A stretch of DNA of 64,000 nucleotides from a virus (taxonomy: Duplodnaviria; Caudoviricetes): IMG/VR virus record IMGVR_UViG_2513237266_000002, positions 33,677 through 97,676 of that record; one strand, 5' to 3'. Below are positions 19,306 to 58,576 of the stretch, piece by piece. Each line of letters begins with the position of its first letter. Positions within the stretch are counted from its first letter, which is position 1. A model generated the notes under the pieces. It saw only the letters and a list, made by a program, of their open reading frames with translations. It searched no databases and was not told where the DNA came from. The translations under genes were made by a program, and so were the position numbers.

Positions 19306-19316
19306 GGCCTGATTTA

Positions 19317-19377
19317 ATACCAAAAGTTTGATTATGTCTCCTACCTATAGTACCCTTCATTTTAATACTTTTAGTAG
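19317..19377. promoter_or_regulatory. OR: three CI/Cro operator sites
   Basis: ATACCAAAAGTTT (19317), CTACCTATAGTAC (19341), ATACTTTTAGTAG (19365); exact 24-bp spacing. Confidence 0.75.
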
Positions 19378-25715: not shown

Positions 25716-26235
25716 ACTGAGCGCAGCGGTCGTTGGTTTGATTCTTACGGGGGCTTCCGCGTCCGTGATTCTCGATCAGTTTCTGGATGAGAAAGAGGGT
25801 AACAGCACAACAGCGTACAAGGACGGCTCTGGTATATGGACTATTTGCCGTGGCGCTACGATGGTTGATGGCAAGCCAGTAGTTCAGGGCATGAAGCTGT
25901 CTGCTGAGAAATGCGCTCAGGTAAACGCCATTGAGCGTGATAAGGCACTGGCGTGGGTTGACCGAAATATCAAAGTACCACTGACCGAACCACAGAGAGC
26001 GGGTATTGCGTCATTTTGTCCTTACAACATCGGCCCCGGAAAATGTTTCCCTTCCACGTTCTATAAGCGCATTAACGCTGGTGACCGTAAAGGAGCCTGT
26101 GAAGCGATCCGCTGGTGGATAAAAGATGGTGGCCGCGACTGTCGTCTGACCAAAGGCCAGAAAAATGGGTGCTATGGGCAGGTAGAACGACGAGACCAGG
26201 AAAGCGCATTGGCGTGCTGGGGGATAGACCAGTGA
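25687..26235 (+). CDS. SAR endolysin (T4-lysozyme family)
   Basis: N-terminal SAR helix; E-8-D-5-T triad (EG..YKD..IWTIC). Confidence 0.92.
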   Translation: MAMSPKLKNKLSAAVVGLILTGASASVILDQFLDEKEGNSTTAYKDGSGIWTICRGATMVDGKPVVQGMKLSAEKCAQVNAIERDKALAWVDRNIKVPLTEPQRAGIASFCPYNIGPGKCFPSTFYKRINAGDRKGACEAIRWWIKDGGRDCRLTKGQKNGCYGQVERRDQESALACWGIDQ

Positions 26236-26756
26236 ACAGAAGCCTCATTGTTGTTGGGATGGCGGCCATCACCTTCATCGCTGTGCTCTTTGTGCTACTG
26301 GCGCGCAGCAATGCAGCGCTGACCACGTCCGAGAGTGATAACCGGGTGCTGCGCAGTGACAACGCACTACAGGCGACGGTAATAACCACTCAGGCTTTCA
26401 ACTTCAACCGGTTTAACCAGATAGCCGAAAACGCCAGCCGACTTAACTCACTTATTGATGTCAGCTCCGATAGCACGGTTATCGAATATAGGGAGATTCT
26501 CCATCGTGAAAAAACCTGTGATCTGCCTGTTCCTGCTGATATCTCTGGCGGGCTGCTCAGCTACGCGAACAGTTTACGTGCCAGCGCAATGCACACCGAT
26601 TCCGGGAACGCTGACACAGTCGGTGATGGCGCCATTACCACCAACGCGCTGACGTATTGCCAGGCTGTTCTCTGGATCAAGCCGCTGCTGGCCGCCATCG
26701 AAAAAGCGAATAACCAGCTGGCTGGAATTCGTGAAATTGAAAAGGGCAGGCAATGA
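26232..26756 (+). CDS. Rz: i-spanin (Rz-like)
   Basis: GTG start, N-terminal TM, helical periplasmic region. Confidence 0.8.
   Translation: MNRSLIVVGMAAITFIAVLFVLLARSNAALTTSESDNRVLRSDNALQATVITTQAFNFNRFNQIAENASRLNSLIDVSSDSTVIEYREILHREKTCDLPVPADISGGLLSYANSLRASAMHTDSGNADTVGDGAITTNALTYCQAVLWIKPLLAAIEKANNQLAGIREIEKGRQ
26506..26652 (+). CDS. Rz1: o-spanin (Rz1-like lipoprotein), embedded and short
   Basis: GGGAG RBS, GTG, lipobox LAGC, Pro-rich; +1 frame inside Rz. Confidence 0.7.
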   Translation: MKKPVICLFLLISLAGCSATRTVYVPAQCTPIPGTLTQSVMAPLPPTR

Positions 26757-26832
26757 CTATTGCCAGCATGACATTACAAAAGCCGTTCACCGAGTGGCTT
26801 TGATAATGTTTTTTGAGTGAGGATTGTTCAGT

Positions 26833-27837
26833 ATGGCTTCGATAAAAGAATCCACTGATGCCAATGGACAATCAAAATATTACGTCCACTGGAAGGATGA
26901 AAAATCCGGTCATGGACGCCGCCGCATTTTTAAGAATATTGATGATGCCGCACATCTTTTCTGGCAAAAACAGAATATCGAGCTGGATTGTCGAACCGCC
27001 AGCTGGGCCGGAATAGACCATTCCTGGACTTTCCGAAAGTTAATTCTGTTTTATCTTGGCTATCAGGCTGGCAAGATGGAAAAAAATATCATACGGCTGT
27101 CGTCATATACGAAATGCCGTCACGATCTTCTCGCTGTAGACGGGCCGATACTGGGAAAAAATATTCTCCATATCAGCCATCGCGATATCGTTGATTCGGT
27201 TCGCACCGGCTGCCATCGCTGGATTCGTTCGGCTTTCTTCCTGCTGGTGGAAAAACGGCTCATCACTTTTAACCCTGTTGACCGTCCCGCGCGCCGGAAG
27301 CGTCGACCCATCACCATACCGCCATCATCATCGGTCAGAGAGCTACTGAATAACGCGCCAGTTCGCGAGCGTATCGCGTGCTGGCTCGGGATTTGTGGCC
27401 TGCGCATCGGTGAGGCTCTGGCGGTTACTTATAACGACGTGTCAGCCGACTGGATCGACATTCGGGGGCATGTTGTTGATGGCGTTATACATGAGGGGCT
27501 GAAAAGAGGCGTGGAGCGCCGGGTACGGATGCCGCGTGAGCTTTTCGCATTGCTGGATAAAAGTAAACTCGGTACCTCTGAGCCTCTTATCTGCAACCAG
27601 TTTACCGGAGCATGCCTCGCTACCAGCTACGGCACTCAGGGGGTTCTCGTCAGAACCCTGAACGACTATGGCATTAAGCGATTCCATCATCTTCGCCACT
27701 TTGCTGTATCTCGCCTGGCAAACAAAGGCGTCGATATTCTGAAGGTTTCTCGCCTCATTGGGCATTCAAACATCAAAACTACGATGGACGTTTACGGCCA
27801 CCTGTTCGGGGAAGTGGTGGAGATGGATTTAGACTGA
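26833..27837 (+). CDS. Tyrosine recombinase between lysis and terminase genes
   Basis: GLRIGE, HHLRH, IGH..TTMDVY; homologue at 56405-57430. Confidence 0.9.
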   Translation: MASIKESTDANGQSKYYVHWKDEKSGHGRRRIFKNIDDAAHLFWQKQNIELDCRTASWAGIDHSWTFRKLILFYLGYQAGKMEKNIIRLSSYTKCRHDLLAVDGPILGKNILHISHRDIVDSVRTGCHRWIRSAFFLLVEKRLITFNPVDRPARRKRRPITIPPSSSVRELLNNAPVRERIACWLGICGLRIGEALAVTYNDVSADWIDIRGHVVDGVIHEGLKRGVERRVRMPRELFALLDKSKLGTSEPLICNQFTGACLATSYGTQGVLVRTLNDYGIKRFHHLRHFAVSRLANKGVDILKVSRLIGHSNIKTTMDVYGHLFGEVVEMDLD

Positions 27838-27838
27838 G

Positions 27839-28023
27839 TTATCCACATAGTGGAAATATTAGGGCGATCCACTATCTCCCCATTCTGCGCGGCCTCCGGG
27901 CATTAAATCGCAGTTTTCCCGAAAAAAAGGATATGCCGCATTTTTACCCCCTCTGATATGCCGCACTTGGCACCAGAGAGGACGCGGCCTGCAAGCCAGA
28001 ATTTGCCGCGTGATACGCCGCAC
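27839..28023. repeat. Repeat-rich site (GATAYGCCGCA x3) with a DnaA-box match; candidate recombination/packaging site
   Basis: GATATGCCGCA 27930, TGATATGCCGCACTT 27954, TGATACGCCGCAC 28011, GACGCGGCCTG 27981; TTATCCACA 27839. Confidence 0.65.
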
Positions 28024-28081
28024 CCGGATCGGTAAAATCGGATTTTGAACAAAAAATAATCACATTGACTTAGGCGGAAGT

Positions 28082-28684
28082 ATGGCTCCTAAAAAAAGCT
28101 TCAGAAAAGCCTACGTCGGTATCGTTATGGACATGGCATTAGCCCGTAGCAAAATCAGCAATCGGATGGTTGCTCAGCGCTTAGGTGTGGACGAGACGAC
28201 GATCCGTCGCTGGCGTAAAGAGAATATCGAGTTTGAGCGCGCTTTCACTGAGGCTCGCGAAGCTCTCAGAGAGAAAATAAACCGCGTCGCCGGTAAGAGC
28301 CTGGACGTTCGTAAACGGAAGGTTGTCACCACATCGCCGGATGGTGTGAAAACCACGATTGAAGATGTGCTGCCCACGCACAACGATATTGCTGTTTTCT
28401 CAAAGGTGCTCGGTCTTGGCACCAGCGTCTATAGCGAGGAAGAACGTCAGCGTGATGTGCTTCGCGAGGTGATGAAACACAAGGTGGCTGGGAAATACTC
28501 CGCGCTGGAGGCGGCGCAGCTGCTTGAGGCTGAGGGGGTAAAAGTTCCGACAACCCTGCTTATGGAGCTGGGAGCACCGAAAATTTTCGAACCGTTCAAC
28601 AATATGGATGAGGCAGCCAAAGCCGACGCGGCGAACCTGACCCCGCAGGAAGCAGCAGATATCTACAAAAAATACATGGGCTGA
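28082..28684 (+). CDS. Terminase small subunit (putative)
   Basis: N-terminal HTH (SNRMVAQRLGVDETTIRRW); LTPQEAADIYKKYMG tail; upstream of terL. Confidence 0.75.
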   Translation: MAPKKSFRKAYVGIVMDMALARSKISNRMVAQRLGVDETTIRRWRKENIEFERAFTEAREALREKINRVAGKSLDVRKRKVVTTSPDGVKTTIEDVLPTHNDIAVFSKVLGLGTSVYSEEERQRDVLREVMKHKVAGKYSALEAAQLLEAEGVKVPTTLLMELGAPKIFEPFNNMDEAAKADAANLTPQEAADIYKKYMG

Positions 28685-28830
28685 AAAATGCAAAAACAGG
28701 CGTTTCGAACTAAAAAAACGCTATGCACTTTTTGACCCGTTTTATGCACGTTTTATTCATCCCGATTTGACCACTTTTCTGTTCGAAACAGAGCCTTCAC
28801 GCCGTTTGCGTGATGGGGGCTGTTGCGCCA

Positions 28831-28857
28831 GTGCGGGTAACGACCATTATGTTAAAT
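28831..28857 (+). promoter_or_regulatory. Putative late-promoter motif, copy 1
   Basis: GTGCGGGTAA-N6-TTATGTTAAAT, repeated at 32711. Confidence 0.55.
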
Positions 28858-28882
28858 CGGGGCGTTTTTGAGGAATTTTTCT

Positions 28883-30499
28883 GTGCCGATCCCGTTCCCC
28901 TTTGATTTCCGCAAACCGGACTATACCGCCGTGTTTGAGTGGAGAATGGAGAGGCTGGAGCGGATCAGGAAAGCGCCTGAAATGCTTCCGGCGCTCCGTG
29001 AGTTTTACCGTACTAACCCGGCCCAGTTCATCATCGACTGGGGCATGACGACGGACCCGCGTAACCTCGATTTCGGGCTTCCCGTGTCCATACCATTCTT
29101 GCTGTTTCCGAAACAGGAAGAGTGGATAAATTGGATTATGGATCGCCGCAAGGGGCTAGAGAACGGACTGACGGAAAAGAGTCGAGAAATGGGGTTAAGC
29201 TGGACCTCTATTGGGCTGGCCTGTTCGCTTTGCCTGTTCAACAAAGAAATGGTGATCGGGTTCGGTTCCCGTAAAGAGGAATATGTCGACAGTACCGGTA
29301 GCCCGAAAGCGCTGTTCTGGAAAGCGCGTAAATTCGTTGAAATGCTACCTGTCGAATTCCGGGGAGGTTGGAACTATAAGAAACATGCACCTTACATGCG
29401 AGTGGAGTTTCCGGAGAGCGGCTCGGTAATTACTGGGGAAGCTGGCGACAATATCGGACGTGGTGACCGCACCACCCTTTATTTCGTGGATGAGGCGGCA
29501 TTCCTTAAGCGTCCTCAGCTTATCGAAGCATCTCTTTCGCAAACCACACGCTGTCGTATCGACCTCTCATCGGTCAACGGCATGGCTAATCCGTTCGCCC
29601 AGAAGCGGCACAGTGGGAAAATCCCTGTGTTTACTTTCCACTGGCGCAGCGATCCGCGCAAGGATGATGAGTGGTACCGCAAAGAATGCGACAAAATCGA
29701 TAACCCCGTTGTTGTGGCACAGGAGCTCGACCTGAACTACAACGCGTCTGCCGAAGGTGTGCTGATTCCAAATGAATGGGTGCAGGCTGCCGTCGACGCG
29801 CATATCAAACTGGGTATTCAGCCAACCGGCAAACGCCTGGGCGCAATGGACGTTGCCGACGAGGGCCGGGACAAAAACTCGTTTTCTACACGTCATGGTT
29901 TCCTGCTGGAGAATGTGCGCGAATGGTCCGGTGTGGGCAGCGATATTTACCAGTCTGTTGAGAAAGTTTTCGGCTACTGCGACAAAGACAACCTCGAAGA
30001 GTATCGCTTTGACGAAGACGGCCTCGGCGCAGGTGTTCGTGGTGATGCAAGAGCCATCAACGAGCTACGCAGCGCCGCAAGTCGGCCAATGATACTTGCC
30101 ACGCCTTTTCGTGGTAGTGGTGGCGTGTTCGACCCAGAAGACGAAGCCGTACGCGGTGACAACGGGCAAAATGCCCGACTTAATAAGGATTTCTTTGCTA
30201 ACGCTAAAGCACAAAGCTGGTGGCATCTACGCAAGCTTTTCAGGAATACCTACCGCGCAGTAGTTGAGGGTATGGACTATGACCCTGACGAAATCATTTC
30301 CATCAGCAGCACGATGAAAAGCAAAGACAAACTCATCATCGAACTTTCACAACCGACTTATTCCATTAATGGCGTAGGGAAAATATCAGTTAATAAACAA
30401 CCTGATGGCACTAAGTCGCCTAACCTGGCTGACTCTGTGATGATTAACTACGCGCCGATGGATTCCTCTCTCGATATCTGGTCCAAACTCGGAGCATAA
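28883..30499 (+). CDS. terL: Terminase large subunit
   Basis: KSREMGLS Walker A, YFVDEAA Walker [10 protein letters not shown] and SPNLAD nuclease motifs. Confidence 0.93.
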
Positions 30500-46630: not shown

Positions 46631-46701
46631 ATGGCCCTCAATTTGGACACACTCGGCTTATCGGCAACGGTAACCGCTGAGGGGATCAGTGCGCCTGATT
46701 A
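46631..46701 (+). pseudogene. Baseplate J-like gene, 5' fragment (interrupted by satellite)
   Basis: MALNLDTLGLSATVTAEGISAPDY continues in frame at 58577 after excision. Confidence 0.9.
46685..46701 (+). repeat. Satellite attL core
   Basis: ATCAGTGCGCCTGATTA, identical at 58560-58576; ATCA-N7-TGAT dyad. Confidence 0.95.
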
Positions 46702-46871
46702 TTTTAATATCTATGAATCAATACGTTAACGTTCAATAAAGCGCGGTGTGGCTGGGTTTAGTCCCTGCTTATGGTGTTTGAATCCATTCGATTACTTTCG
46801 TCTATCTGGGGTTCAATTCGCCATAAGTGGGACTACGAAAGAAACCACAGCGGAAGCAGTGATAGGAGCTG

Positions 46872-48104
46872 ATGATGCTTGTTAAACCACTCACCAATGC
46901 AGAAGTTAAGAACGCGAAGCCACAGCTTAAAGATTACAGTCTTCATGATGGGTTTGGACTTCTTCTGTACGTTACTAAGTCAGGCGGTAAATCGTGGCGA
47001 TTCCGCTATGCGCACCCCATAACCGGGAAAAGGCAGACATTCACTATTGGCCGATATCCAGAATTTAGTCTCGCAGAAGCGAGGGAGGCGAGAGAAGAAG
47101 CCAGAAGGAAAGTTGCCCGAGGGATAGATCCAAACGAGGTTAAAAAAGAAGAACTCAGCGACAGACGGAAAAAACATGCGCAGCAGTTTTCTGTTATCGC
47201 TGATAACTGGCTGAAAATAAAAATCACGGAGGGCATCCGCAGCAATACAATTCGAGGCTACGAGGGGGCTTTAAAAACGCTGAATAGTGTTCTTGGTGAC
47301 GAGCCGGTACATAAAATGAATGCCGCCTCAACAATTCAGGCAATGAGAGAGTTTGCCGATCGTCCCGCCTCTGTGGAAAAGATGATAGTTGTGCTCAATT
47401 CGGTAATGGATTATGCGGTAAACACCGGAGTCATTGACCATAATTGCCTGCTAAAAATCGGCAAGGCTTTCCCAGCCAAAAGAAGCGTACCAATGCCCGT
47501 GATGGATAAAGGCAGATTGCCTGTGTTCCTTTCTGAATGGCTGGGGCTGAGTATGTGGGAGCCGATAAGGCTGTGTGTCTACTTCCAGCTTTTAACGATG
47601 GTAAGGCCATCTGAGGCTCGCCTGGCTGTTTGGGACGAAATTGATTTAGACAGTGCTGTCTGGAAAATTCCGGCTGAAAGAATGAAAGGGAAAAGGCCAC
47701 ACGCTGTACCGCTGTCCGCGCAAGCAATAGCAGTTTTACGCAATGCTGAAAAATGGCGTCGCGGGGCGTTTATTTTTCCTTCCGGCAAAAAGGGAGATAA
47801 GCCGATTGGAAAATGTACCGGGCAGATCGCTATTCATAAAACATCGCTAAGCGGAGAGGTTGTTACTCACGGGCTTAGGTCGCTTGCATCAACTGTGCTG
47901 AATGAAGAAGGGTTTAACCCTGATGTTATTGAGGCGGCACTTGCTCACAGAAGCAGGAACGCAATCCGCAATATCTACAATCGTACTGATTACTTTGAAC
48001 AGCGGCGTATGCTCATGCAGTGGTGGGGGGATTATGTCGATAGCGCAGAGCGCGGAGAACTGCTTGAGACAAAGGGCGATAAAGGATTAAGGCTGATTGG
48101 TTAG
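46872..48104 (+). CDS. int: Satellite integrase (P4-type)
   Basis: DGFGLLL..GGKSW..IGRYP..SLAEAR arm domain; VRPSE, HGLR, LAH...Y. Confidence 0.95.
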   Translation: MMLVKPLTNAEVKNAKPQLKDYSLHDGFGLLLYVTKSGGKSWRFRYAHPITGKRQTFTIGRYPEFSLAEAREAREEARRKVARGIDPNEVKKEELSDRRKKHAQQFSVIADNWLKIKITEGIRSNTIRGYEGALKTLNSVLGDEPVHKMNAASTIQAMREFADRPASVEKMIVVLNSVMDYAVNTGVIDHNCLLKIGKAFPAKRSVPMPVMDKGRLPVFLSEWLGLSMWEPIRLCVYFQLLTMVRPSEARLAVWDEIDLDSAVWKIPAERMKGKRPHAVPLSAQAIAVLRNAEKWRRGAFIFPSGKKGDKPIGKCTGQIAIHKTSLSGEVVTHGLRSLASTVLNEEGFNPDVIEAALAHRSRNAIRNIYNRTDYFEQRRMLMQWWGDYVDSAERGELLETKGDKGLRLIG

Positions 48105-48225
48105 TCCTCAAAACTCGACGTTTATTGCTGGCTATATGCCAGATTTTTTATTCCATTCAAACGCCGAAATGTATCTTTTTTATTCATATTTGTTATAATT
48201 GATTCATATATATACGGAGGTTTTT

Positions 48226-48438
48226 ATGTCTGAATCGAATAGTGAAATACTACTTAAAGGCGAGGTTAAAGCGCGACTTCGCTACCGTTCTGATTCTGCG
48301 TTCTATGATTTCCTCAAAGATGAGGGAAACGGTTTTCCGATGCCTTTTAAAGTGGGAGGCCGTAACTGCTGGTATCGTGACGAGGTTGAAGCGTGGATCG
48401 GGAAACAAAGTGAAAAGCGCGGGATCTGTACCGCATGA
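48226..48438 (+). CDS. alpA: AlpA-family regulator/excisionase
   Basis: FPMPFKVGGRNCWYRDEVEAW; GGAGG RBS. Confidence 0.85.
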   Translation: MSESNSEILLKGEVKARLRYRSDSAFYDFLKDEGNGFPMPFKVGGRNCWYRDEVEAWIGKQSEKRGICTA

Positions 48439-48577
48439 AAGCGGAGCAAATAGACGGGGCTTGTTACCGAAAGGGGCAAGCCTTTTTTATTGTCTGTTGC
48501 CAGCAACGGTAACTTACACCAGCCAGAGAAAGGCATTTCATCGGGTAGCGGTGGAATGTTTGCAGAAAAATGCACAA

Positions 48578-48682
48578 AGGTATTCATAGTGTTCATGATT
48601 TGAATATAGGTATTAAAAATCAGATAGATAGGCTATGAACACCTTTATCTAAGGTATTCATAGGGTATTCATAGTGTTCATA
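48578..48682. repeat. Iteron cluster 1 (GTRTTCAT / ATGAAYAC)
   Basis: About 6 copies, e.g. GGTATTCATAGGGTATTCATAGTGTTCAT. Confidence 0.75.
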
Positions 48683-48876
48683 AAGCGTGGATCTTTCCCC
48701 GGAAAAATTCGCCGGATGTTATAAAGCGCTTGCGTCATCATGGCGGGCATGGTTATGATTATTTCGCACCTTATAAAACGGGTGCCGGGTTTGACAGCCT
48801 GAACGTTCAAGCGGGTAGCCGCTAATTTCCGTATAGCGGTATTTTTACGCCCGTATTTCACCTATACCCCGATTTA

Positions 48877-48952
48877 TGGCGGGGCGTGGTGGGGAGGCTT
48901 ACGCCTGCTGGTTTCTTGAACGCCAGTCTGTCAACCCTGCTACGTCTCGCCA
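48877..48952 (+). ncRNA. C4/CI-like antisense immunity RNA
   Basis: TGGCGGGGCGTGG...CTACGTCTCGCCA closing stem; internal CTTGAAC and CTGTCAA complementary to GTTCAAG/TTGACAG upstream (48791-48811) and downstream (48960-48997). Confidence 0.8.
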
Positions 48953-49008
48953 CCCATGTTTGACAGCATCTGGCGAGACTCCTGAAAAATGTTCAAGGAG
49001 CCGCTAAA

Positions 49009-49254
49009 ATGGCTAAACCAACCTGCCCCAAATATACCTGGCTGTTTCTGGCCACACCGAAAAAACACGACTGCACACCAATCGTATTGCGCACAATGGC
49101 TGATACCGAAGAAGAAGCCCGCGATACCTTCCCATGCTGGAACCTGACTTTTGCCGCAAAAATCCGCACTGAAAGCAGCCTGCGTGATTCTGGCTGTGGA
49201 ACTTATGGCCTGAACCTCCTGACTCCGGAAATGCTGGAGGTGCACAATGTTTAA
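49009..49254 (+). CDS. Icd-like cell-division inhibitor
   Basis: [21 protein letters not shown]; follows C4-like RNA. Confidence 0.8.
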
Positions 49255-50125
49255 CCTCCAGACATTGACAGCCAAAGCCCGAGAATTGCGCGGCAACGTG
49301 GTTAAAGCGGTTAGCACTAAGGGCAGTCGCACAATGACGCCAGTTTATGACCGTGACGAACAGCGCAAGCTACGCGAACGCATACAGCAGACGCAACCGG
49401 ATTGGTTGTTGCTCTGGTGGGACATTGCGACCGTAACCGGCTGGCGTACCAGTGACGTTTGCAACCTGCGCTATTCCTGCATCAATTGGGAAACGGGGCA
49501 GGCGACAATTATCGTTGCCAAACAGACCAAAGCTGCTGAAGCGCGGGCAACCCGCAAAGGCATTGAAATCGTGCGCCAGCAGCGCAAGGACGCGGCGAGG
49601 CTTGCCGCTGACCATATCGCCTACATGAAGTGGGACAGCATCAACTGTGACGCGCTGGCAGCGGATATGACCGACGAAGAACAGGCGATAGTATTCGGGC
49701 TGGTGGCTAAAGCTGACGTTAAGCACGACACCAAACAGTTACCGCCTGGCATCATCAAGCGGCTGCGCGAACGTCAGGATCGGAACTTGGTAGAGGACGA
49801 CCTGATATTTTCCCGCTCTCAAATCGAAAGTAACCGTTGTCAACGTCTGGAAGGTAGCGTGACCCGCCAGACCATATGGCGCAAACTCCATGATGTGATG
49901 GCGTGGTTTACCCGCGTTATCAACGCCAAACTGCGTCTGAGCGCTTATTCAAGCCGTAAGATTGCAGCCTTTAACCTCATGTCAGCAGGCGGCGAACAAG
50001 GTTTGTTGGTGGCCTCTGAAATGCTGGGGCATAGCAACCCGGCAATAACACGCACATATCTGCAGTTAGGAAGTAAAGCGGCCGCGATCCAGTCTCGTCT
50101 GGCTATGGAGGTGTGCAATGCGTAA
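49247..50125 (+). CDS. Second satellite tyrosine-recombinase-family protein
   Basis: TGWRTSD, YSSRK, LGHSN..TRTYL. Confidence 0.8.
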
Positions 50126-50300
50126 AACCTTCCAGATTGATGGCTACGCAGTTAACAAACGCGGTCTGACCGTTGGTATTCACTACACCATGACCAGCAC
50201 CGGCCCTGAAACGGCGAAAGATACGGCGCAGCTACTTGCTCAGAAAGGCGGGTATAAACACGTCCGTATTAACTTTGTCCGGGAGGCGAAAAATGCGTGA
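50118..50300 (+). CDS. Small hypothetical protein
   Basis: GGAGG RBS, coupled. Confidence 0.65.
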   Translation: MRKTFQIDGYAVNKRGLTVGIHYTMTSTGPETAKDTAQLLAQKGGYKHVRINFVREAKNA

Positions 50301-50487
50301 GCCAATCAGCTTAGACCAGGCTGAATATAAATCAGCACTGGCCGCTTCACTCTTTGAAACCATTCTGGAAAAAGCCTGTGCTGAATGTTCGGAAACCCTG
50401 CTGAACCATATCTCACTGGCATGTGACCTTAATCAGGAAATTCACCGGGCATTAATCGCTGAGCTGCGCATGGGAGAGACAAAATGA
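50293..50487 (+). CDS. Small hypothetical protein
   Basis: MREPISLDQ start, GGAGG RBS. Confidence 0.65.
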   Translation: MREPISLDQAEYKSALAASLFETILEKACAECSETLLNHISLACDLNQEIHRALIAELRMGETK

Positions 50488-50690
50488 GACAGGTTCCTTT
50501 TGAAGTCCTGATGCACGCCGAAAATGCGCTGGCATACAGCAAACAGGCTCTGGCTATTCTGGAAGTCTGGATGGACTCACTAGGCGAAGGTGACGAACAC
50601 GAATCTAACTGCGTAGCCGCCATTCACAGCCTGGTACATGAATCAAAAGAATACCTGCAAAAAGCCACGGGGGTACAAAGTGCAAAATGA
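50484..50690 (+). CDS. Small hypothetical protein
   Basis: ATGA overlap with upstream gene. Confidence 0.65.
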   Translation: MRQVPFEVLMHAENALAYSKQALAILEVWMDSLGEGDEHESNCVAAIHSLVHESKEYLQKATGVQSAK

Positions 50691-53022
50691 CTTTGTAAGC
50701 GATGTGCGCAGCAGAGCAAATGGCTATTGGCCGTCGATACTTGAACGCCTGGCGATTCCGACTAACCGCAGTGAGGGGCCGTGTCCTGCGTGTGGCGGTA
50801 ATACCCGTTACCGTTTCGACAATAAAGATAACCGGGGAACGTATTTCTGTTCGCACTGTGGCGCGGGTACCGGGCTGGATCTGGTGATGAAGGTCAACCA
50901 GTGCGGCCCGAGAGAAGCGGCTGAGCTGGTGGCCGAAGCTATGACGCTGCCTATGCCGGAACCGAAGCAAGCCAGAGATAAGCCTCAAACGGATATCGCC
51001 GGGAAAGTTGCGGCGCTGGCCGCGAAAGCCTCTCCGGGGCAGTCTGCTTACCTTACATCAAAGGGGCTTCAATGCCCCTTCCCGATGCTGTCCGACGGAT
51101 CGCTGCTGCTGGTGCTGAAAAACGGTGCTGGTGCGGCGACTGGCGCACAGGTGATTAAACCTGATGGCAGTAAGCGGCTGGTGGCCGGAACGGTGAAGAA
51201 AGGCTCTTTTTGCGTAGTTAATTCCGGCGCAACGTCGGAAACGGTGATTATCGCCGAAGGGCTGGCAACGGCGCTTTCGGTTCAGCAGTTCCGCCCTGAT
51301 GCGACAATTATCGCAGCTATTGACGCCGGGAACCTGCTGCCCGTTGCTCAGGTGATGCGCAAAAAATACCCGAACGCGCGGATCATCATTGCTGCAGATA
51401 ATGACCAGAGCGCCGAAAGTGACAGAAGCGGAGAAGTGAAAGTTAACACAGGTAAGGAGTGTGCAGAGAAAGCCGCTAAAGCCGTTGCTGGCTGGGTTTC
51501 TTTGCCCCCTGTGGACTACAAGGCGGACTGGAACGACTACCACCGACAAAACGGACTGGAAGCCGCTATAGCAGCATTTAACGATTCGATGTATCAGCCG
51601 GAGGGGGAAACTGTGGGCGCAAAACTTAAAGTAGTCGATGGCGGTAAAAAGCGCGGGCGCGGAGAAATCAACCTGATCCAGATGGCAGATAATGAAAAAG
51701 CGCTGATGCTGGCAGACCGTTACGAGGGAATAGCCATTCACGCAGAGAGCGAGGCTGTATATCTGTACCGTGAAGGCGTATGGGTAAAAGCAGCGCCATT
51801 AGAATTAAGCCGCGAAATGGTGGCTATCTACAACGAAAATCAGACTAATTTCAGCAAACGCTCAGTAAATAACGTAATTGAAGCATTGAAGATTGTCATT
51901 CCTGTTATGGGCCAGCCTCGCCGGAGCCTGATCCCGTTCAAAAATGGTGTGTACGACATGGAAACCGGGACTTTCTCGCAGCATTCATTAGATAACTGGC
52001 TTACTAACGATAACGGTGTGATCTATACGCCGCCGGAGCCTGGCGAAAATCTTCACGACCATGCGCCAAACTTCCATAAATGGCTAAGTTACACAGCAGG
52101 AAGAGACGCACTTAAAATGAAGCGGATCGCCGCTGGGCTTTTTATGGTGCTGGCGAACCGCTACGACTGGCAGCTTTTTCTTGAGATAACCGGGGAGGGA
52201 GGTAGCGGCAAAAGCGTTTTCACTCACATTGCTACTATGCTGGCTGGCGAACACAACACGGCCAGCGGAAATATGGCCGCACTGGATAGCGCCAGAGGTC
52301 GGGCGCAGTTCGTAGGCAAAAGTATGATAACCCTACCAGACCAGCCAAAATATTCAGGCGAGGGAACGGGTATAAAAGCGATTACGGGCGGCGATGCCGT
52401 AGAGATTGACCCGAAGCATGAACACCAGTACACCGCCGTTCTGAGGGCTGTTGTAGTCGCTACAAACAACACGCCGATGATTTTCACCGAACGGGCCGGA
52501 GGCGTTGCCCGCCGTAGGGTTATTTTTCAGTTTAATAACCGGGTTCGAGAGGAAGACAAAGACCCCGATTTGTCGGAAAAGATATCCGCAGAAATCCCGG
52601 TTATTGTCCGCCGGCTCCTGGCTAACTTTTCTGATCCAGAGAAAGCAAGGGCGCTTTTGTTGGAACAGAGGAACAGTGAAGAAGCGCTGGAGGTTAAACA
52701 GAAAACAGACCCGCTTTATGCTTTCTGCGCATACCTTGAAAAGCTGTCAGAGTGTACGGGAATGCTGGTAGGGAACCGCAATCCGCCTCTCTACCCACGC
52801 GTGTATCTCTATCATGCGTATCTGGCCTTTCTGGAGGCTAACGGATTCGATAAGCCTTTAACACTCAATAAATTTGCTGAGGGCATGGAAAGCGCAATGC
52901 GCGAATTTAACCACGAATACCGGAAAGAGAGAAAGACGCGAGGAGTTGTAACCAACGTGGAACTCTCAGGAAGTGCTGAAGACTGGCTTCCACAGCCTTA
53001 TCCCAATCCCGCCAAGAAGTAA
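50680..53022 (+). CDS. P4 alpha-like primase-helicase
   Basis: CPACGG..CSHCG Zn finger, EGLATA/AADND TOPRIM, GEGGSGKS SF3 helicase, C-terminal winged helix. Confidence 0.93.
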   Translation: MQNDFVSDVRSRANGYWPSILERLAIPTNRSEGPCPACGGNTRYRFDNKDNRGTYFCSHCGAGTGLDLVMKVNQCGPREAAELVAEAMTLPMPEPKQARDKPQTDIAGKVAALAAKASPGQSAYLTSKGLQCPFPMLSDGSLLLVLKNGAGAATGAQVIKPDGSKRLVAGTVKKGSFCVVNSGATSETVIIAEGLATALSVQQFRPDATIIAAIDAGNLLPVAQVMRKKYPNARIIIAADNDQSAESDRSGEVKVNTGKECAEKAAKAVAGWVSLPPVDYKADWNDYHRQNGLEAAIAAFNDSMYQPEGETVGAKLKVVDGGKKRGRGEINLIQMADNEKALMLADRYEGIAIHAESEAVYLYREGVWVKAAPLELSREMVAIYNENQTNFSKRSVNNVIEALKIVIPVMGQPRRSLIPFKNGVYDMETGTFSQHSLDNWLTNDNGVIYTPPEPGENLHDHAPNFHKWLSYTAGRDALKMKRIAAGLFMVLANRYDWQLFLEITGEGGSGKSVFTHIATMLAGEHNTASGNMAALDSARGRAQFVGKSMITLPDQPKYSGEGTGIKAITGGDAVEIDPKHEHQYTAVLRAVVVATNNTPMIFTERAGGVARRRVIFQFNNRVREEDKDPDLSEKISAEIPVIVRRLLANFSDPEKARALLLEQRNSEEALEVKQKTDPLYAFCAYLEKLSECTGMLVGNRNPPLYPRVYLYHAYLAFLEANGFDKPLTLNKFAEGMESAMREFNHEYRKERKTRGVVTNVELSGSAEDWLPQPYPNPAKK

Positions 53023-53028
53023 GCAAAT

Positions 53029-53058
53029 AAAAAGCCCGCGAAAGGAGGCGCGGGCTTT
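53029..53058. terminator. Terminator after primase
   Basis: AAAGCCCGCG...CGCGGGCTTT. Confidence 0.7.
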
Positions 53059-53239
53059 GCTTAGTATCACATTGTGCAATCGGAGAGGGTATGCCTGCCC
53101 TCACAAACTTAGGATAGCAGATATTTAACACTGAATACCACTTTTATAAATTGATTGTTGTGTTTATTACCTGTTTTTATGGTAATGAAGTATAATATCT
53201 GTACCGACAATCCCGTCGAGGTAACAGGACAATCTGACC

Positions 53240-53794
53240 ATGCCAAATCTCAAGCAGTTCAATGCTCAGCCCGTCGCTAACGGTGTCGTAATCACGGCGA
53301 ACTACGACGACGGCAGCACTATTTCCTTTCCTACTGATAAACAATCATCCGATTTTATGACATCTATTGTGCAGGCGCTGGCCTCAGCTAATGACCGTAT
53401 CATTGCTGCTGAAAATCGCGCGGCGGCGGCAAATCGCACGGCTGATCGCATGTACAAGCGGACCGTAGATTCATCCGAAGATGGACTGCCAACAAAAATA
53501 GACCCTCAGTTTATGCGACTGGTTCGTGCTGTATGCCCGCGTTATGACGAGGCCAGCCAAGGAGATGATCCACGGTTGGTCGCCCTTGATGTGCTGCGTT
53601 ATGCGCCAGTAACTGCGTTCAGTGCGGTATGCAATGAATCACTGGCTGATTTGCAACCTAATCGGGCGATAGAAATTCTTGAGCAGGTGGGTGATTACAT
53701 GAAAGCCAACGGCATTGATCCGAAGCCATATACGTCAGCCGATACGATTAGGGCTATCGGCGATTCTGCTAAAAAATTCTGGAGTAAAAAATAA
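53240..53794 (+). CDS. Satellite protein ending in scaffold-like C-terminal motif
   Basis: C-terminus IRAIGDSAKKFWSKK resembles helper [16 protein letters not shown]. Confidence 0.7.
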   Translation: MPNLKQFNAQPVANGVVITANYDDGSTISFPTDKQSSDFMTSIVQALASANDRIIAAENRAAAANRTADRMYKRTVDSSEDGLPTKIDPQFMRLVRAVCPRYDEASQGDDPRLVALDVLRYAPVTAFSAVCNESLADLQPNRAIEILEQVGDYMKANGIDPKPYTSADTIRAIGDSAKKFWSKK

Positions 53795-53795
53795 T

Positions 53796-53981
53796 ATGTC
53801 ACGATTCATTACCCGATCAGAACGAGAAGCAATGCGAGCGCGTAGAACGACTGATAGTGAACGAGCAAACATTCAGAATATCAATCAGGCCAATAAAGAT
53901 TTTTGGGAACAGAAAAAAACGGAAGAAAAAGATAGGTTGGCCGTGATTAACAGACACCTTTTTCCCTACGGTAAATTTTAA
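53796..53981 (+). CDS. 61-aa satellite protein with scaffold-like motif
   Basis: TTDS...IQNINQANKDFWEQKK; GGAG RBS; starts 1 bp after upstream stop. Confidence 0.65.
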   Translation: MSRFITRSEREAMRARRTTDSERANIQNINQANKDFWEQKKTEEKDRLAVINRHLFPYGKF

Positions 53982-54025
53982 CCCCACAGCCCGGAGATTA
54001 GTCCGGGTTTGCTTTTTTAAGGAGC

Positions 54026-55099
54026 ATGAATATGTCACAAAACTGGATGCGTCACTTTGAATTACAACTGGTGGACGACAACGGGCAAGGTATTGAACTC
54101 AGCGATTTCAAAGTGACCTTCACGATCGACTGGTTCAACATCAGCAGCGCGTCGCGGGTGGGTACGTTCAAAATCTACAACCTGTCGGCTGATACGGTGA
54201 ACCGAATCACCGGGCAGGAGTTTTCGAAAGTGCGTCTGATTGCGGGCTATGACGGCATCGCGCCGGAAGTGTCGGCCAGCAGCGTCGGAACGGCGCGAGA
54301 AGTCGATGCGGCGGACGTGGGCCAGAGTGATGGCCGGAACTACGGACTGATTTTCAGCGGAGAAATTCGCTACTCGGTCACAGGTAAAGACAGCCCCATT
54401 GATTCCTACGTCCTGATTCAGGCAGCCGATACGGATCTGGCTTTTGCTACCAGCATAACCTCGCAGACGCTGGCAGCCGGCTACACGACAGAAGACATGT
54501 TCAATCTTTTAATGAAAGACTTTGAGGCCAAAGGCGCAACTGTGGGTCGCACTCCAGTATTCCCCCCTACAGTGTTCCCTCGGGGCCGCGCACTGTTTGG
54601 CATGACCAGACACCTGATGGACAACGTGGCCGCACAATGCGGAGCGACCTGGCAGTTCGTGGACGGACAGCTAAATATGCTGCCAGAAGGTGAGTATATG
54701 CACGACGCGATTGTGCTCAACAGCGCCACCGGACTGATCGGGATGCCGCAGCAGACCATCGGCAACGGCGTGAACGTTCGCGCACTGATTAACCCGAATA
54801 TTCGAATTAACGGGCTCATTCAGCTGGATCAACGTTCCGTGTATCGCACCGCGTTGTCAAACAACGATATCGCGATGGCTGGCGGGCAGATCACCGACCA
54901 GAATACGGACGGCAATATCACGCTCAGCGGCACCACAGCGCAGCCTGCCAGCATCGCAACAGATGGCGTTTATGTTGTGAAAGGCATTATGTACACTGGC
55001 GACACAAGGGGCCAGGCGTGGTACATGGATATGATGTGCGAAGCGCGTGGCGCGGCGGATCTTAATTCAAAATCTTATTTCGATAAAACGAGTGGCTAA
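54026..55099 (+). CDS. Baseplate hub protein (satellite allele)
   Basis: Near-identical to 42734-43801 except a few patches and the C-terminus. Confidence 0.9.
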   Translation: MNMSQNWMRHFELQLVDDNGQGIELSDFKVTFTIDWFNISSASRVGTFKIYNLSADTVNRITGQEFSKVRLIAGYDGIAPEVSASSVGTAREVDAADVGQSDGRNYGLIFSGEIRYSVTGKDSPIDSYVLIQAADTDLAFATSITSQTLAAGYTTEDMFNLLMKDFEAKGATVGRTPVFPPTVFPRGRALFGMTRHLMDNVAAQCGATWQFVDGQLNMLPEGEYMHDAIVLNSATGLIGMPQQTIGNGVNVRALINPNIRINGLIQLDQRSVYRTALSNNDIAMAGGQITDQNTDGNITLSGTTAQPASIATDGVYVVKGIMYTGDTRGQAWYMDMMCEARGAADLNSKSYFDKTSG

Positions 55100-55446
55100 T
55101 GATAACTGCATTAAAAACATTCTGTGCATTTGCAATATTCTTATCTTTATCAGCTAATGCTGCTTTCTTATGTGGTAGCTGGAAACTAACGGGTAATGAT
55201 GATGGCTGGGTTAGGGTAAATGGTGAGAAGGTAACTTCCCAAAAAGTTAAAGAATTAGGCGCGAAAGGTGATGGTGCTAACACTGTTTGGAATATGGGCC
55301 TGATGCCAGCGCGTGACGGGAACAATTACGGCTTTGAGTTCGTGAAGCGCAAAGGAAAAGCTTTCCTGAACGTCCAACTGCTGCAGAACAGCATGGACGC
55401 GCCGAGAATCATCGGATCTTTCCCGTGTAAAAAAGTTCCTGATTAA
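55099..55446 (+). CDS. Exported small protein (satellite allele)
   Basis: Signal peptide; C-terminal half nearly identical to 43801-44154. Confidence 0.85.
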   Translation: MITALKTFCAFAIFLSLSANAAFLCGSWKLTGNDDGWVRVNGEKVTSQKVKELGAKGDGANTVWNMGLMPARDGNNYGFEFVKRKGKAFLNVQLLQNSMDAPRIIGSFPCKKVPD

Positions 55447-55512
55447 AGCAGAGACTTAGCGGCATATTAGTAACACCTTATGTTAATAAAATGTTTCTAT
55501 TGAGGCGACAGG

Positions 55513-55619
55513 CATGAACACCTATGTACACTTATGAAGGGTTGTGAATACTGGTGTTCATGCTTTATCTTTATGAATAATATGGTTAATATCGCGAATA
55601 TGAATACCATGAACACCTT
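55513..55619. repeat. Iteron cluster 2 (ATGAAYAC)
   Basis: ATGAACACC, TGAATACTGGTGTTCAT, ATGAATACCATGAACACC; same motif as cluster 1. Confidence 0.7.
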
Positions 55620-55811
55620 GAGAGCAAGTTCTCTAAAACGCGCCCTAAATGCAACACTTACAGTATAAAAACCATTTTTATAGTTCAAAAAAGAATATGC
55701 ATTAACAATTTATTATCATTTGGTTTGGCGGCATTTATAAGCTTTTACGCACAGAAAATAACCATCTTGTTAGCCGTATTAAATGTCAGACGTGAGGAAC
55801 GGTAACTTAAA

Positions 55812-56396
55812 ATGAAAAATAGCGTTACTAATGCAAACTCCTGCTCTGATACGCAGGAAATTGAAAGTTTACCTGCATACAGACAGGCGCTGGCCGATGA
55901 CGCTGTAAGTAATAAGGTGTCTGCTGTAGAACGTATCCGGGCAAGGTTGGCGCTTCTGGAGAGCTATATTCCTGATTCGCCTGTGCCACAAGACGAGGTA
56001 GCCGAATTTCGTGGCCGCATCACCGGATTACTCGGTGAACTGGAGGTGGGCGGTAAACGCGGCACTGTACTGATTCATGCACATCGAAAATTACGCGATT
56101 TAGAGGATCGGATTTACATTCCTGTACGCCGGATGGCCGCTGAACAGTTTGACCAACTGCGCCGGGAAAAACCGGACATGACGGGCGATGTATTACTGAA
56201 AACTCTGCTGGGCGATGAAATTGGCGAATATCAGACGAGAAACCCGGAGGCGTCAAAAATAGCCACTCTGGCCGCGCTTATGAGGTCATCACCCCGTGTG
56301 GATATTCTCATCAACATGATCCGCCAGCGAAATGATGAGCATACGGTAGCAGTGTTTAGCTGGTGTCCTCTGGAATTACCTTTGCAGGGTGTGTAG
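55812..56396 (+). CDS. Hypothetical satellite protein
   Basis: 194-aa ORF upstream of third recombinase. Confidence 0.7.
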   Translation: MKNSVTNANSCSDTQEIESLPAYRQALADDAVSNKVSAVERIRARLALLESYIPDSPVPQDEVAEFRGRITGLLGELEVGGKRGTVLIHAHRKLRDLEDRIYIPVRRMAAEQFDQLRREKPDMTGDVLLKTLLGDEIGEYQTRNPEASKIATLAALMRSSPRVDILINMIRQRNDEHTVAVFSWCPLELPLQGV

Positions 56397-56404
56397 GGGG
56401 AAAC

Positions 56405-57430
56405 ATGGCATCTATCCGTGAGATTGGCTCGGGAAAGCGCCTGCGTTATGTCGTTAACTGGCTGGATAAAGAAAACCGCACCGGGCGACGCAATACCTTT
56501 CACAGCATCGACGATGCGGCGGCGCTGCTGTATCAACTGGAAGTGGCAGCCCTTGACTGGCGAACGGCAGACAATGCGGAGGCGGTAAAACGCTGGACGC
56601 TGCAGAAACTGTCTTGGTTCTGGCTGGGATATCAGCGCGACAGGCTGAACCGGAACAGGATCAGGGCAACCAGTTACGACCGCTACCGCTATTGCCTGCT
56701 AAACCTTCCGTCTGACCTGCTGAATAAAAACCTGAATAAAATCACTTCACGCCAACTTAGCGAGCGGCTTAACCGACAGTCGCTTGTGTACATCGGCGCG
56801 GCTTTTGCTTATCTCATGCGTTCCGGGATGATTGCTCATAATCCGGTTCGCCAGAGCCGATCACCGGCAGACAGGCCGTGGCAAATCCCGGATGAAGATA
56901 CCGTGTTAGCCATGCTGGATCGCGCAGAGCGGCGCGAAAGGATTGCTATCTGGCTGGGCGCGGCTTGCGGCCTGCGTATCAGCGAAGTGCTGGCGTTAAC
57001 CTATCGGGATGTGAGCGCTGACGAAATACAGGTTCGCTGCCATCTGACTTCACGCGGGATTATCCGGGGCAGAAAGCGCGGCAGGGGCCGTTCCGTCGAT
57101 ATGCCGGTTGGCCTGTATGAGTGCCTCGATAAAACGCTGCTGGGAACGGATACACCGCTGATTGCCGGGAGCAACGGACAGAGGCTGAGCCTGAACTACA
57201 GCACATCCGGCGTGATGAAACGCCTGCTCTCTGAATTCGGGATAGAGCGCTTTCATGACCTGAGGCATTTTGCGGTGTCCAGCCTGGTAAAAAACGGCGT
57301 TGATATTCTGGACGTGTCGGACATGGTGGGCCACTCCCGGCCGTCGGTGACGTTGAATATTTACGGGCATCTTTTCCGCGAAAAACCGTCACTCAAGAAC
57401 GCTCTGAGAGGAGGGGTAAGGAGAATATAG
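56405..57430 (+). CDS. Third satellite tyrosine recombinase, homologue of helper 26833-27837
   Basis: Shared MASI, GRR..F..IDDAA, WT..KL..F.LGYQ, RERIA.WLG, RFH.LRHFAVS.L...GVDIL, YGHLF. Confidence 0.9.
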   Translation: MASIREIGSGKRLRYVVNWLDKENRTGRRNTFHSIDDAAALLYQLEVAALDWRTADNAEAVKRWTLQKLSWFWLGYQRDRLNRNRIRATSYDRYRYCLLNLPSDLLNKNLNKITSRQLSERLNRQSLVYIGAAFAYLMRSGMIAHNPVRQSRSPADRPWQIPDEDTVLAMLDRAERRERIAIWLGAACGLRISEVLALTYRDVSADEIQVRCHLTSRGIIRGRKRGRGRSVDMPVGLYECLDKTLLGTDTPLIAGSNGQRLSLNYSTSGVMKRLLSEFGIERFHDLRHFAVSSLVKNGVDILDVSDMVGHSRPSVTLNIYGHLFREKPSLKNALRGGVRRI

Positions 57431-57496
57431 TAAACTCCTTACTTTCCCGGTGTGATGCGGGTTCATCGACTGAAAGCGACGATCTAGCCATTTTTG

Positions 57497-57637
57497 GATA
57501 ATACCGCACTTTTTCACGCTTTCCGGACGGGTGAGCAACAAAATGCGGAGAAATGAGGAATGACGCGGCCTGTAGCCCGACAAAGTGCGGCATATCACAT
57601 GAGCGCAGGCCGCATTCTACCGTTATCGATACGCCGC
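57497..57637. repeat. Satellite counterpart of helper repeat site
   Basis: AAGTGCGGCATATCA (57583) is the exact reverse complement of helper 27954-27968; GACGCGGCCTG 57562; GATACGCCGC 57628. Confidence 0.75.
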
Positions 57638-57700
57638 GGACTTTTTGAGGGTTCGTGAGCACGTCCCGTTTTTTGCCGATGGTGGACAGAGTGAGGAAAA

Positions 57701-58225
57701 ATGAACGTTTTAGCAGCCGCTGAAAATGGCTTCCGGTTTAAGGGGATCTGGTGGACGGAGGAGACCTTTACTGACGTATTGCGCACGGTACTGAACCTGC
57801 ACCGTGCTATGAGTAATCACCGGGTGGCTTTTCACTTTGGAGTTTCTGAAAAAGCCGTCAGGAAATTGAGAGCACGCAGCGATACCGCCAATGGGGTGAT
57901 ACTGCGCCTGATGGAAGAAGCGAAACTCAGCAGTAGCAGGCCAGCACAGTATCGCGAACGCAACTGGTACAACAATTACCCGGAAGACATCGAGGCCAGA
58001 AAAATACTGATAGCCGCAGAGGAGGAAAGGGAAAGGCAGCGGGTAGTTCGACATGAGCAGCGAAAGCAGAGAACGCGCCGGGTTACTGATGGTGCTCTAC
58101 GTCTTGAGCGGATTAGAGCGCAGCGGCGTGAGGCGGTACAATGCTGTAAACGGTCAGGATTAACTCAGGTGCTGGCAGCAGAAAGCCTGTCATGTTCGCT
58201 AAGTACTGTCCGGCGGTACTGGTGA
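57701..58225 (+). CDS. Double-HTH protein; N-terminal HTH resembles helper TerS
   Basis: SNHRVAFHFGVSEKAVRKLR vs SNRMVAQRLGVDETTIRRWR; C-terminal TQVLAAESLSCSLSTVRRYW. Confidence 0.7.
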   Translation: MNVLAAAENGFRFKGIWWTEETFTDVLRTVLNLHRAMSNHRVAFHFGVSEKAVRKLRARSDTANGVILRLMEEAKLSSSRPAQYRERNWYNNYPEDIEARKILIAAEEERERQRVVRHEQRKQRTRRVTDGALRLERIRAQRREAVQCCKRSGLTQVLAAESLSCSLSTVRRYW

Positions 58226-58277
58226 ATGTTGAGCGACCGTAGCCGTTAAGTTTCACTTCTGGTAATGAGTAACTTAC

Positions 58278-58466
58278 ATGCTGAAATCTGATGTGATTGA
58301 GTCTGCAATAGCAGAGATGTTAACAAAGCAAGGGCGAGATTTAGACGCTACTGACATGCTGGAGATACGCCGTAGGGTAGCTGGATCGCTCGCCGCAAAG
58401 GAAAGGCACCGCCAGCGCATGACAGCCCCGGAATATCGCTGGAACAAGCCTGCACCCCGCAGATAG
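58278..58466 (+). CDS. Small basic hypothetical protein
   Basis: Last ORF before attR. Confidence 0.6.
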   Translation: MLKSDVIESAIAEMLTKQGRDLDATDMLEIRRRVAGSLAAKERHRQRMTAPEYRWNKPAPRR

Positions 58467-58559
58467 TAATTTGCACACCTAAGAGCAGTTAACGGACTAG
58501 ATTCCCACTACAAATAAAATAAAAGCCATATATATCAATAGCATTATCATTGTTATTGA

Positions 58560-58576
58560 ATCAGTGCGCCTGATTA
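58560..58576 (+). repeat. Satellite attR core
   Basis: ATCAGTGCGCCTGATTA. Confidence 0.95.

Follow-up and report, generated by a model that had tools for sequence, protein, structure and literature searches.

A tyrosine recombinase gene paired with a small terminase in a packaging-recognition module of prophages, phage-plasmids and satellites

A stretch of 64,000 nt from the IMG/VR virus record IMGVR_UViG_2513237266_000002 (positions 33,677 to 97,676, further called the window) contains a prophage in which a tyrosine recombinase gene, R1 (26833..27837, + strand), is located between the lysis genes and the gene of the small terminase TerS (28082..28684, +). This region is one inherited packaging-recognition module, composed of a leader hairpin, R1, a conserved non-coding block (block A), a repeat array, TerS and the gap between terS and terL. 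R1 is, as judged from its sequence and predicted fold, a catalytically intact and strongly selected tyrosine recombinase of the integrase fold, and it occurred only together with this TerS family, be it in integrated phages with a separate integrase, in phage-plasmids or in satellites. The repeats between both genes are very probably recognized by TerS. As to the function of R1, we tentatively prefer a role in cyclization or multimer resolution, by recombination within the DNA of the element itself at a pac-adjacent site.

R1 and TerS form an old and obligate pair

Starting from R1, a TerS homologue was found ~250 bp downstream in all loci with enough flanking sequence (~70 viral and 12 genomic loci). 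Starting from TerS, a gene of the R1 family ends less than 400 bp upstream in 68/68 loci. The gene contexts of several homologues with 43-55% identity fall outside these counts. The order of lysis genes, recombinase (R), a spacer with its own repeats, a TerS with a helix-turn-helix (HTH) and TerL is kept in distant relatives as well. These comprise a viral contig (L162; R with 43% identity, TerL of the Terminase_3 family), the circular 34-kb element pTP33 of Yersinia pestis (R with 43% identity) and plasmids of Arsenophonus nasoniae (R with 35% identity). pTP33 carries ParA, Rep and, as a toxin-antitoxin pair, YefM/YoeB, and R is the only tyrosine recombinase among its 40/44 annotated features. 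A scan of the viral contigs with the Y. pestis R protein gave no matches. The pairing of R1 and TerS is obligate and old, and it extends over integrated phages, phage-plasmids and satellites.

We found no description of a recombinase-TerS pairing in the literature searched. pTP33 is called phage-plasmid-like in a 2026 preprint, in which the recombinase is not discussed. New in this analysis are the assignment of the repeats to TerS, the two-allele cassette, the tail that probably docks TerL, the likeness of R1 to integrases in its fold, the estimate of selection and the lack of inversions, all of which are described below.

The module starts with a leader (26772..26832, +) that contains a hairpin (26779-26801), the sequence GATAATG, a T-run and the ribosome-binding site of R1. 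This leader is kept in 22 diverse loci regardless of the gene upstream, with compensatory changes in the stem, and the terminator-like hairpin was also recovered by a terminator scan. No direct repeats were found to flank the R1-TerS module, and the idea of a nested island bordered by att repeats was rejected on this ground. The original prediction, made from the letters of the window, had likewise seen no repeats that would mark an island; the recombinase, spacer and TerS that it grouped together constitute one conserved, selected module.

Features of the recombinase R1

R1 is an uninterrupted open reading frame from ATG to stop that encodes 334 aa. It matches PF00589 (E 2.5e-15) and phrog_1, and an alignment of 16 family members shows no variation at residues R191, K224, H285, R288, H311 and Y321. 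R1 has both the catalytic set and the catalytic fold of the tyrosine recombinase superfamily. The earlier claim of an intact second recombinase between the lysis genes and terS agrees with the reading frame, the PF00589 match and the catalytic residues. The ratio of nonsynonymous to synonymous substitution rates (dN/dS) is 0.07-0.14, with a dS above 1 and saturated synonymous sites; R1 is under strong purifying selection.

The AF2 model of R1, with a predicted local distance difference test score (pLDDT) of 87, comprises an N-terminal part of sheet and helix, a helical core-binding domain and a catalytic domain. In this model, the N-terminal part (residues 3-52, pLDDT ~90) consists of three strands (3-8, 14-21 and 28-33) and a helix (36-52) and has the topology of arm-binding domains; only one structural alignment (5j0n_F, from residue 24) extends into it. 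The integrases of P2, HP1, Tn1549 and lambda, as well as XerA, all rank above Cre in the structural comparison (Foldseek, VIA), and the catalytic domain scores Z 15-16 against the P2 and HP1 integrases versus ~13.7 against Cre. The modeled R1 thus looks integrase-like rather than Cre-like. Besides being its best structural matches, the lambda, P2/HP1 and Tn1549 integrases have in common with R1 their length, the three-part architecture and all catalytic residues.

Spacer repeats and the two-allele cassette

The spacer between R1 and terS (27838-28081) measures 244 bp and contains a repeat array (27929..28023, +) with three direct copies of GATAYGCCGCA, starting at 27930, 27955 and 28012, and a degenerate copy, TTTGCCGCG, at 28002. 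This corresponds well to the ~240 bp with three such repeats that had been noticed before. The only further exact copy in the 64 kb is located at 57586 on the minus strand, inside the equivalent spacer of an embedded satellite. None of 100 shuffled sequences reached the observed count, and our own estimate is ~0.06 exact copies by chance.

Two types of repeat region occur among 22 aligned spacers: type T1 with GATAYGCCGCA and type T2 with A(A/T)TCCGCA (ATTCCGCA-type). A direct comparison is offered by loci L005 (T2) and L006 (T1), in which R1 is 100% identical while the TerS HTH sequences differ. None of the 188 variable columns of R1 separates T1 from T2 loci. In TerS, 7/26 variable columns within the N-terminal 61 alignment columns separate the two types, versus 0/110 elsewhere (Fisher p 4.5e-6). 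All seven are located in the HTH, and they include the recognition helix (TTIRRWRK versus ATIRNWRK). The motif type and the variant of the recognition helix are concordant in 71/71 classifiable loci, out of 73.

Since the motif switches together with the TerS HTH while R1 remains identical, the GATAYGCCGCA repeats are very probably the sites recognized by TerS and hence a predicted pac recognition element, although physical linkage alone could give part of the covariation. Repeats that serve as arm or core sites of the recombinase were rejected for the same reason, which overturns the earlier view of the array as a recombinase site.

Sliding identity revealed a divergent segment from +85 to ~+640 past the R1 stop codon in phages that are otherwise 96-100% identical. 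Between 27918 and 28480, the identity is 46-80% among the loci compared (L005, L006, L013, L021, L024 and L036). The left edge is sharp and coincides with the AAATCGCAGTTTT box of block A, while the right edge is gradual. By its sequence limits, the cassette comprises exactly the predicted sites and the DNA-binding half of TerS (the N-terminal ~two-thirds), and it exists as two swappable alleles. This two-allele pac cassette stands independently of the role of R1 and is copied by embedded satellites. Two alleles, with satellites that track the allele of their helper, may suggest an arms race over packaging specificity.

Short repeats that lie upstream of terS or within its 5' end are also present in lambda (the R sites of cosB) and in SPP1 (the pacL and pacR boxes). 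As in those phages, the N-terminal HTH of TerS would read the repeats, with a specificity that co-evolves with that domain. Unlike in the lambda and SPP1 arrays, the array occurs here as two alleles together with half of TerS, a copy is found in a satellite and a recombinase gene is always attached.

TerS, TerL and the gap between their genes

TerS has 200 aa, with an N-terminal HTH at residues ~19-48 and a C-terminal tail. Database matches are to HTH domains, with only weak matches to TerS PHROGs. The AF2 model has a pLDDT of 69, and its best, though weak, fold matches are 2ao9 (a phage protein of phBC6A51) and 3zqq (an SPP1-like small terminase). TerS and its counterpart in SEN34 are not homologous, even though the two TerLs are 87% identical. 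The last ~16 residues (..NLTPQEAADIYKKYMG; EAADIYKKYMG) nevertheless agree with the C-terminal ends of unrelated TerS proteins from SEN34 and Hafnia phage yong1, whose partner TerLs belong to the same family. This tail is replaced in loci that encode a TerL of another family downstream. Because the tail is common to unrelated TerS proteins with the same TerL family and is swapped when TerL changes, it probably docks TerL. The protein encoded at 28082-28684 thus has an HTH, a position before terL and a partner-specific tail, as expected of a small terminase.

TerL (28868..30499, +) matches phrog_2 and is of a headful-associated type; its nuclease domain matches Sf6 gp2 and 8dkr (E 1e-28 to 1e-32). 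At least four types of TerL, including Terminase_6 and Terminase_3, occur together with the module, and by sequence all partner TerLs fall in families that are usually headful-associated. In a provirus (L032, 8502/8504), 16.3 kb are deleted between a point 466 bp inside terL and a baseplate gene; R1, the pac sites and TerS are retained in this defective derivative.

The terS-terL gap (28685..28867, +) is conserved, spans 183 bp and contains two or three TATGCAC-T-run repeats at a 21-bp spacing and the TerL leader. An inverted repeat in this gap, GTTTCGAAC/GTTCGAAAC, is not kept in diverged loci. The gap was rejected as a universal R site, since L162 and pTP33 lack it (terS and terL overlap). 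In a single provirus (L012, 8003-11343) a 3.3-kb insert is present in the gap just upstream of TerL, with DDE_Tnp_1, an HTH transposase-like open reading frame and DUF6904. Given its transposase genes, it was rejected as relevant to the module.

Block A and other spacer elements

Block A (27838..27925, +) represents the first ~85 nt past the R1 stop codon and is non-coding. It is conserved in the alignment of 22 diverse spacers and contains the boxes TGGAAAT, GATCCACTATCTCCCCATT, GCGG and AAATCGCAGTTTT. Among 34 distinct sequences (74 loci), nearly all keep these boxes unchanged, despite the saturated synonymous sites of R1. Block A is a candidate for the site of R1, the region of the pac cut or a promoter.

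The original prediction had also pointed to a perfect TTATCCACA in the spacer. It is indeed present, at 27839-27847 within block A. However, at least one copy occurs in 43/100 shuffles and the sequence varies among relatives, so that we regard it as a chance match and rejected it as a DnaA box or origin. Block A also contains an inverted repeat, ATAGTGGA/TCCACTAT (27847/27868), with arms of 8-10 bp and a 13-bp spacer; it was rejected as a palindromic recombination site, as its left arm is not conserved. The spacers of distant members of the R1 family share no consistent inverted repeat. A perfect 12-nt inverted repeat at 27942 and 28532 is not conserved in T2 loci; for this reason, it was treated as chance and rejected as a functional element. 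The spacer ends with the terS leader (28040..28081, +), which consists of TTTTGAACAAAA.ATAA and a ribosome-binding site and is conserved in both motif types.

A satellite with a related module

A satellite of 11.9 kb (46686..58576, +) splits the baseplate J gene of the prophage and is bordered by a 17-bp repeat, ATCAGTGCGCCTGATTA, at 46686 and 58560. Baseplate J is uninterrupted in SEN34 and in L032, the latter representing an empty site. The satellite encodes R2 (56405..57430, +), a paralogue of R1 with 45% identity, preceded by a conserved gene, orf194 (55812-56396), and followed by a gene for an HTH protein. The order orf194-R2-HTH is also present in L092 and L160. In the satellite spacer (57431..57700, +) we found GGATAATACCGCAC at 57496, GATATGCCGCA at 57586 (-) and GATACGCCGCG at 57628, and an element GACGCGGCCTG.AGCC is common to the satellite (57562) and the helper (27981). 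The related satellite L092 has a T2-like motif at the position where the satellite in the window has T1, which is in line with satellites that take over their helper's pac sites.

The HTH protein of the satellite (57701..58225, +) has 174 aa, with a TerS-like N-terminal HTH and a C-terminal HTH that resembles sigma region 4. Its residues 26-95 align to residues 15-87 of TerS (hhalign, E 0.0012), without BLASTP similarity. Neither a TerL-binding tail nor a TerS core was found in this protein, which does not qualify as a small terminase. The satellite copy of the module proposed earlier is therefore genuine for the recombinase and the repeats, while the downstream protein is not a full TerS and has only its HTH in common.

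The satellite resembles the helper-embedded phage-inducible chromosomal islands (PICIs) described by Tommasini, Mageeney & Williams 2023 (PMC10111431) in its location inside a helper late gene, its orientation along that gene and a packaging-site region at the right end, as for cos-type PICIs. Unlike those PICIs, it encodes a paralogue of R1 and an HTH protein and contains repeats of the pac type. No second recombinase is described in that paper, in the text of which the word 'recombinase' occurs 0 times. The same paper states that PICI DNA is packaged as phage-length concatemers.

In addition, the satellite has a P4-type integrase at 46872 and a primase at 50638. Between both lies a third, weak integrase-like open reading frame (49247-50125, 292 aa; phrog_216, E 4e-20). 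The satellite's own copies of the hub and phrog_3443 genes are 87-88% identical to those of the helper.

Possible roles of R1

In the reading that we prefer, R1 would not integrate the phage but recombine a site of its module with a second copy of that site; block A (27838-27925) is the best candidate for it. Its substrates would be all molecules that carry this site twice: the first headful, terminally redundant, after injection, satellite DNA packaged as a concatemeric headful, or dimers of a plasmid. As with Cre/loxP in P1, monomer circles would result, independently of RecA. We favor cyclization or resolution because no tyrosine recombinase other than R was seen in phage-plasmids, because of the strict linkage to pac recognition in headful systems and because a paralogue is located in a satellite of a kind reported to be packaged as phage-length concatemers. 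A broader claim, that R1 makes or resolves multimers at pac, as a step required for headful packaging or for the establishment of these elements and in place of the general recombination systems of related phages, and thereby represents an undescribed class of packaging-coupled site-specific recombination, is possible but somewhat doubtful.

P1 has its Cre/loxP system near pacA and pacB, with the site close enough to pac to lie within the terminal redundancy; it cyclizes injected DNA and resolves plasmid dimers independently of RecA. The likeness to R1, in terms of these properties rather than of the P1 sequence, consists of a tyrosine recombinase apart from chromosomal integration in a headful, plasmid-capable element. 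The R1 gene abuts the predicted pac recognition sites, and relatives of R1 occur in phage-plasmids (pTP33 and the Arsenophonus plasmids). Unlike Cre, to which no sequence relationship is detectable, R1 has an extra N-terminal domain, and a 13-8-13 lox-like site was not found; its gene directly precedes terS in the late operon, in an obligate linkage with a single TerS family. The analogy with P1 Cre/loxP that was drawn at the outset remains the nearest known one, given the phage-plasmid relatives and headful-type terminases, but it does not extend to the integrase-like fold or to a lox-type site.

The distribution of general recombination genes bears on the same question. No general recombination system was found in the early region of the prophage in the window; RecT, Erf and YqaJ are present in 0/5 proviruses with R1, and no general recombination genes are annotated in phages EKP1 and YP3. 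Relatives with the same virion genes that lack R1 (SEN34, yong1 and Mulock) do contain exo, RecT or Bet.

Several observations weigh against cyclization or resolution. A lox- or dif-like core was not found, and the arms of the sole inverted repeat in block A are 13 bp apart. Block A is situated upstream of the TerS repeats, so that with packaging toward terL it would fall outside the terminal redundancy unless the cut is made further left. It is found beside TerS without R1 in the (probably chimeric) record of phage YP3, and it could be a part of pac or a promoter that does not belong to R1. The fold of R1 is closer to the heterobivalent integrases than to Cre or Xer. R1 belongs to the late operon, where a terminator-like hairpin precedes it, and early expression, as cyclization upon entry would require, is not evident. 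Finally, the complementary distribution of R1 and general recombination genes is a hint from a small comparison confounded by shared ancestry, in which 1/5 proviruses has an AAA_24 (Sak4-like) gene and pTP33 has both R and RecT. The missing core site, the ambiguous and upstream position of block A and the late-operon location are the reasons why we hold this role only tentatively.

If cyclization or resolution by R1 is correct, it would represent a second, independent solution of the Cre/lox type, widespread in prophages of Enterobacterales, phage-plasmids and satellites. It would explain how headful phages become established without Erf, RecT or Red functions and might provide a new tool for site-specific recombination.

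The late-operon location fits a late role in making multimers at least as well as an early role. R1 could fuse monomer circles at the pac-adjacent site into dimers or multimers that exceed one genome length and suffice for a headful, in circle-replicating phages or phage-plasmids without general recombination. In lambda, monomer circles are not known to be packaged, and dimers made by Int can rescue maturation in the absence of Red and Rec. Such a role is in line with the position of R1 just before terS, behind a hairpin that a Q-modified polymerase would read through, with partner TerLs of headful types and with a helicase-primase type of replication in which RecT, Erf and an exonuclease were not found. 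We nonetheless consider it unlikely, as two identical sites recombine reversibly, usually in favor of resolution, the role requires no adjacency to pac, pTP33 also has RecT and these phages may have rolling-circle replication.

The integrase-like fold with its extra N-terminal domain of three strands and a helix would also suit a spare or legacy integrase, kept from phage-plasmid ancestors, with an attP in the spacer that serves an alternative chromosomal site or a switch between plasmid and integrated state. The spacer of ~240 bp has the size of an attP, and 2/5 proviruses show no other PF00589 gene in their record. However, integration at this position would place R1 and terS at opposite ends of the prophage, whereas both genes are always adjacent and collinear in ~150 loci. 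Since R1 and terS are not separated in any locus, integration through the spacer is unlikely. The would-be arm repeats track TerS and not R1, contrary to what a lambda-type attP would show, and the prophage in the window, EKP1, YP3 and 3/5 proviruses have a separate integrase. Unlike heterobivalent integrases, R1 is thus not at a prophage end, coexists with an integrase and excisionase and has adjacent repeats that are not arm sites. Altogether, we regard a legacy integrase as improbable.

R1 might instead mobilize or exchange the pac-TerS cassette in an integron- or homing-like manner, without direct benefit to the phage. The whole module replaces an unrelated TerS before an 87%-identical TerL (compared with SEN34) and is combined with four TerL types, and the sharp left edge of the T1/T2 cassette and the deletion junction of YP3 both fall at the AAATCGCAGTTTT box. 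A selfish cassette is nevertheless highly improbable, considering the gradual right edge, which is expected of homologous exchange, the strong purifying selection and the strict, vertical-looking synteny down to 35% identity; neither flanking repeats nor pairs of empty and filled sites were found for R1 itself.

An invertible promoter switch like that of FimB/FimE, in which R1 would flip a spacer segment controlling terS and the late genes, is scarcely credible and was rejected: although a recombinase, a short non-coding segment and the operon order recall fimB-fimE-fimS-fimA and a perfect 12-nt inverted repeat is present (27942/28532), inverted segments occur in 0/79 loci (no high-scoring segment pair on the minus strand), 73 loci are collinear over the whole spacer, the repeat is not conserved in T2 loci and R1 counts 334 aa with an extra N-terminal domain versus ~200 aa for the Fim recombinases.

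Genomic setting and minor observations

The window starts with the tail end of a first prophage (1 to ~10.6 kb). The second prophage, which carries the module, has its own integrase (14126-15304, -) and excisionase besides R1, followed by CI (18604-19323, -), helicase and primase genes, Q (23750-24586), holin, endolysin and Rz (26115-26756). From there, the order is Rz, R1, TerS, TerL, portal, head genes, sheath, tape measure and baseplate.

Besides R, the phage-plasmids pTP33 (L236, 14497-15099) and paNv_CH8 (L237, 8637-9242) have a serine recombinase gene, located between terL and the portal gene. The module was also found with 70-83% identity in two records with unexpected host labels, ‘Elizabethkingia phage EKP1’ (L233, OM284015.1) and a contig labeled ‘Chryseobacterium sp.’ (L090). 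As the module is typically enterobacterial, these labels may reflect contamination or misassignment. The record of Yersinia phage YP3 (L003, PV092592.1) contains block A twice and the baseplate J regions twice, with R1 fused to the start of TerL and terS located elsewhere. The record gives the impression of a chimeric assembly or of a phage mixed with a derivative that has a deletion, and its rearrangements were therefore set aside as a clue to the crossover site.

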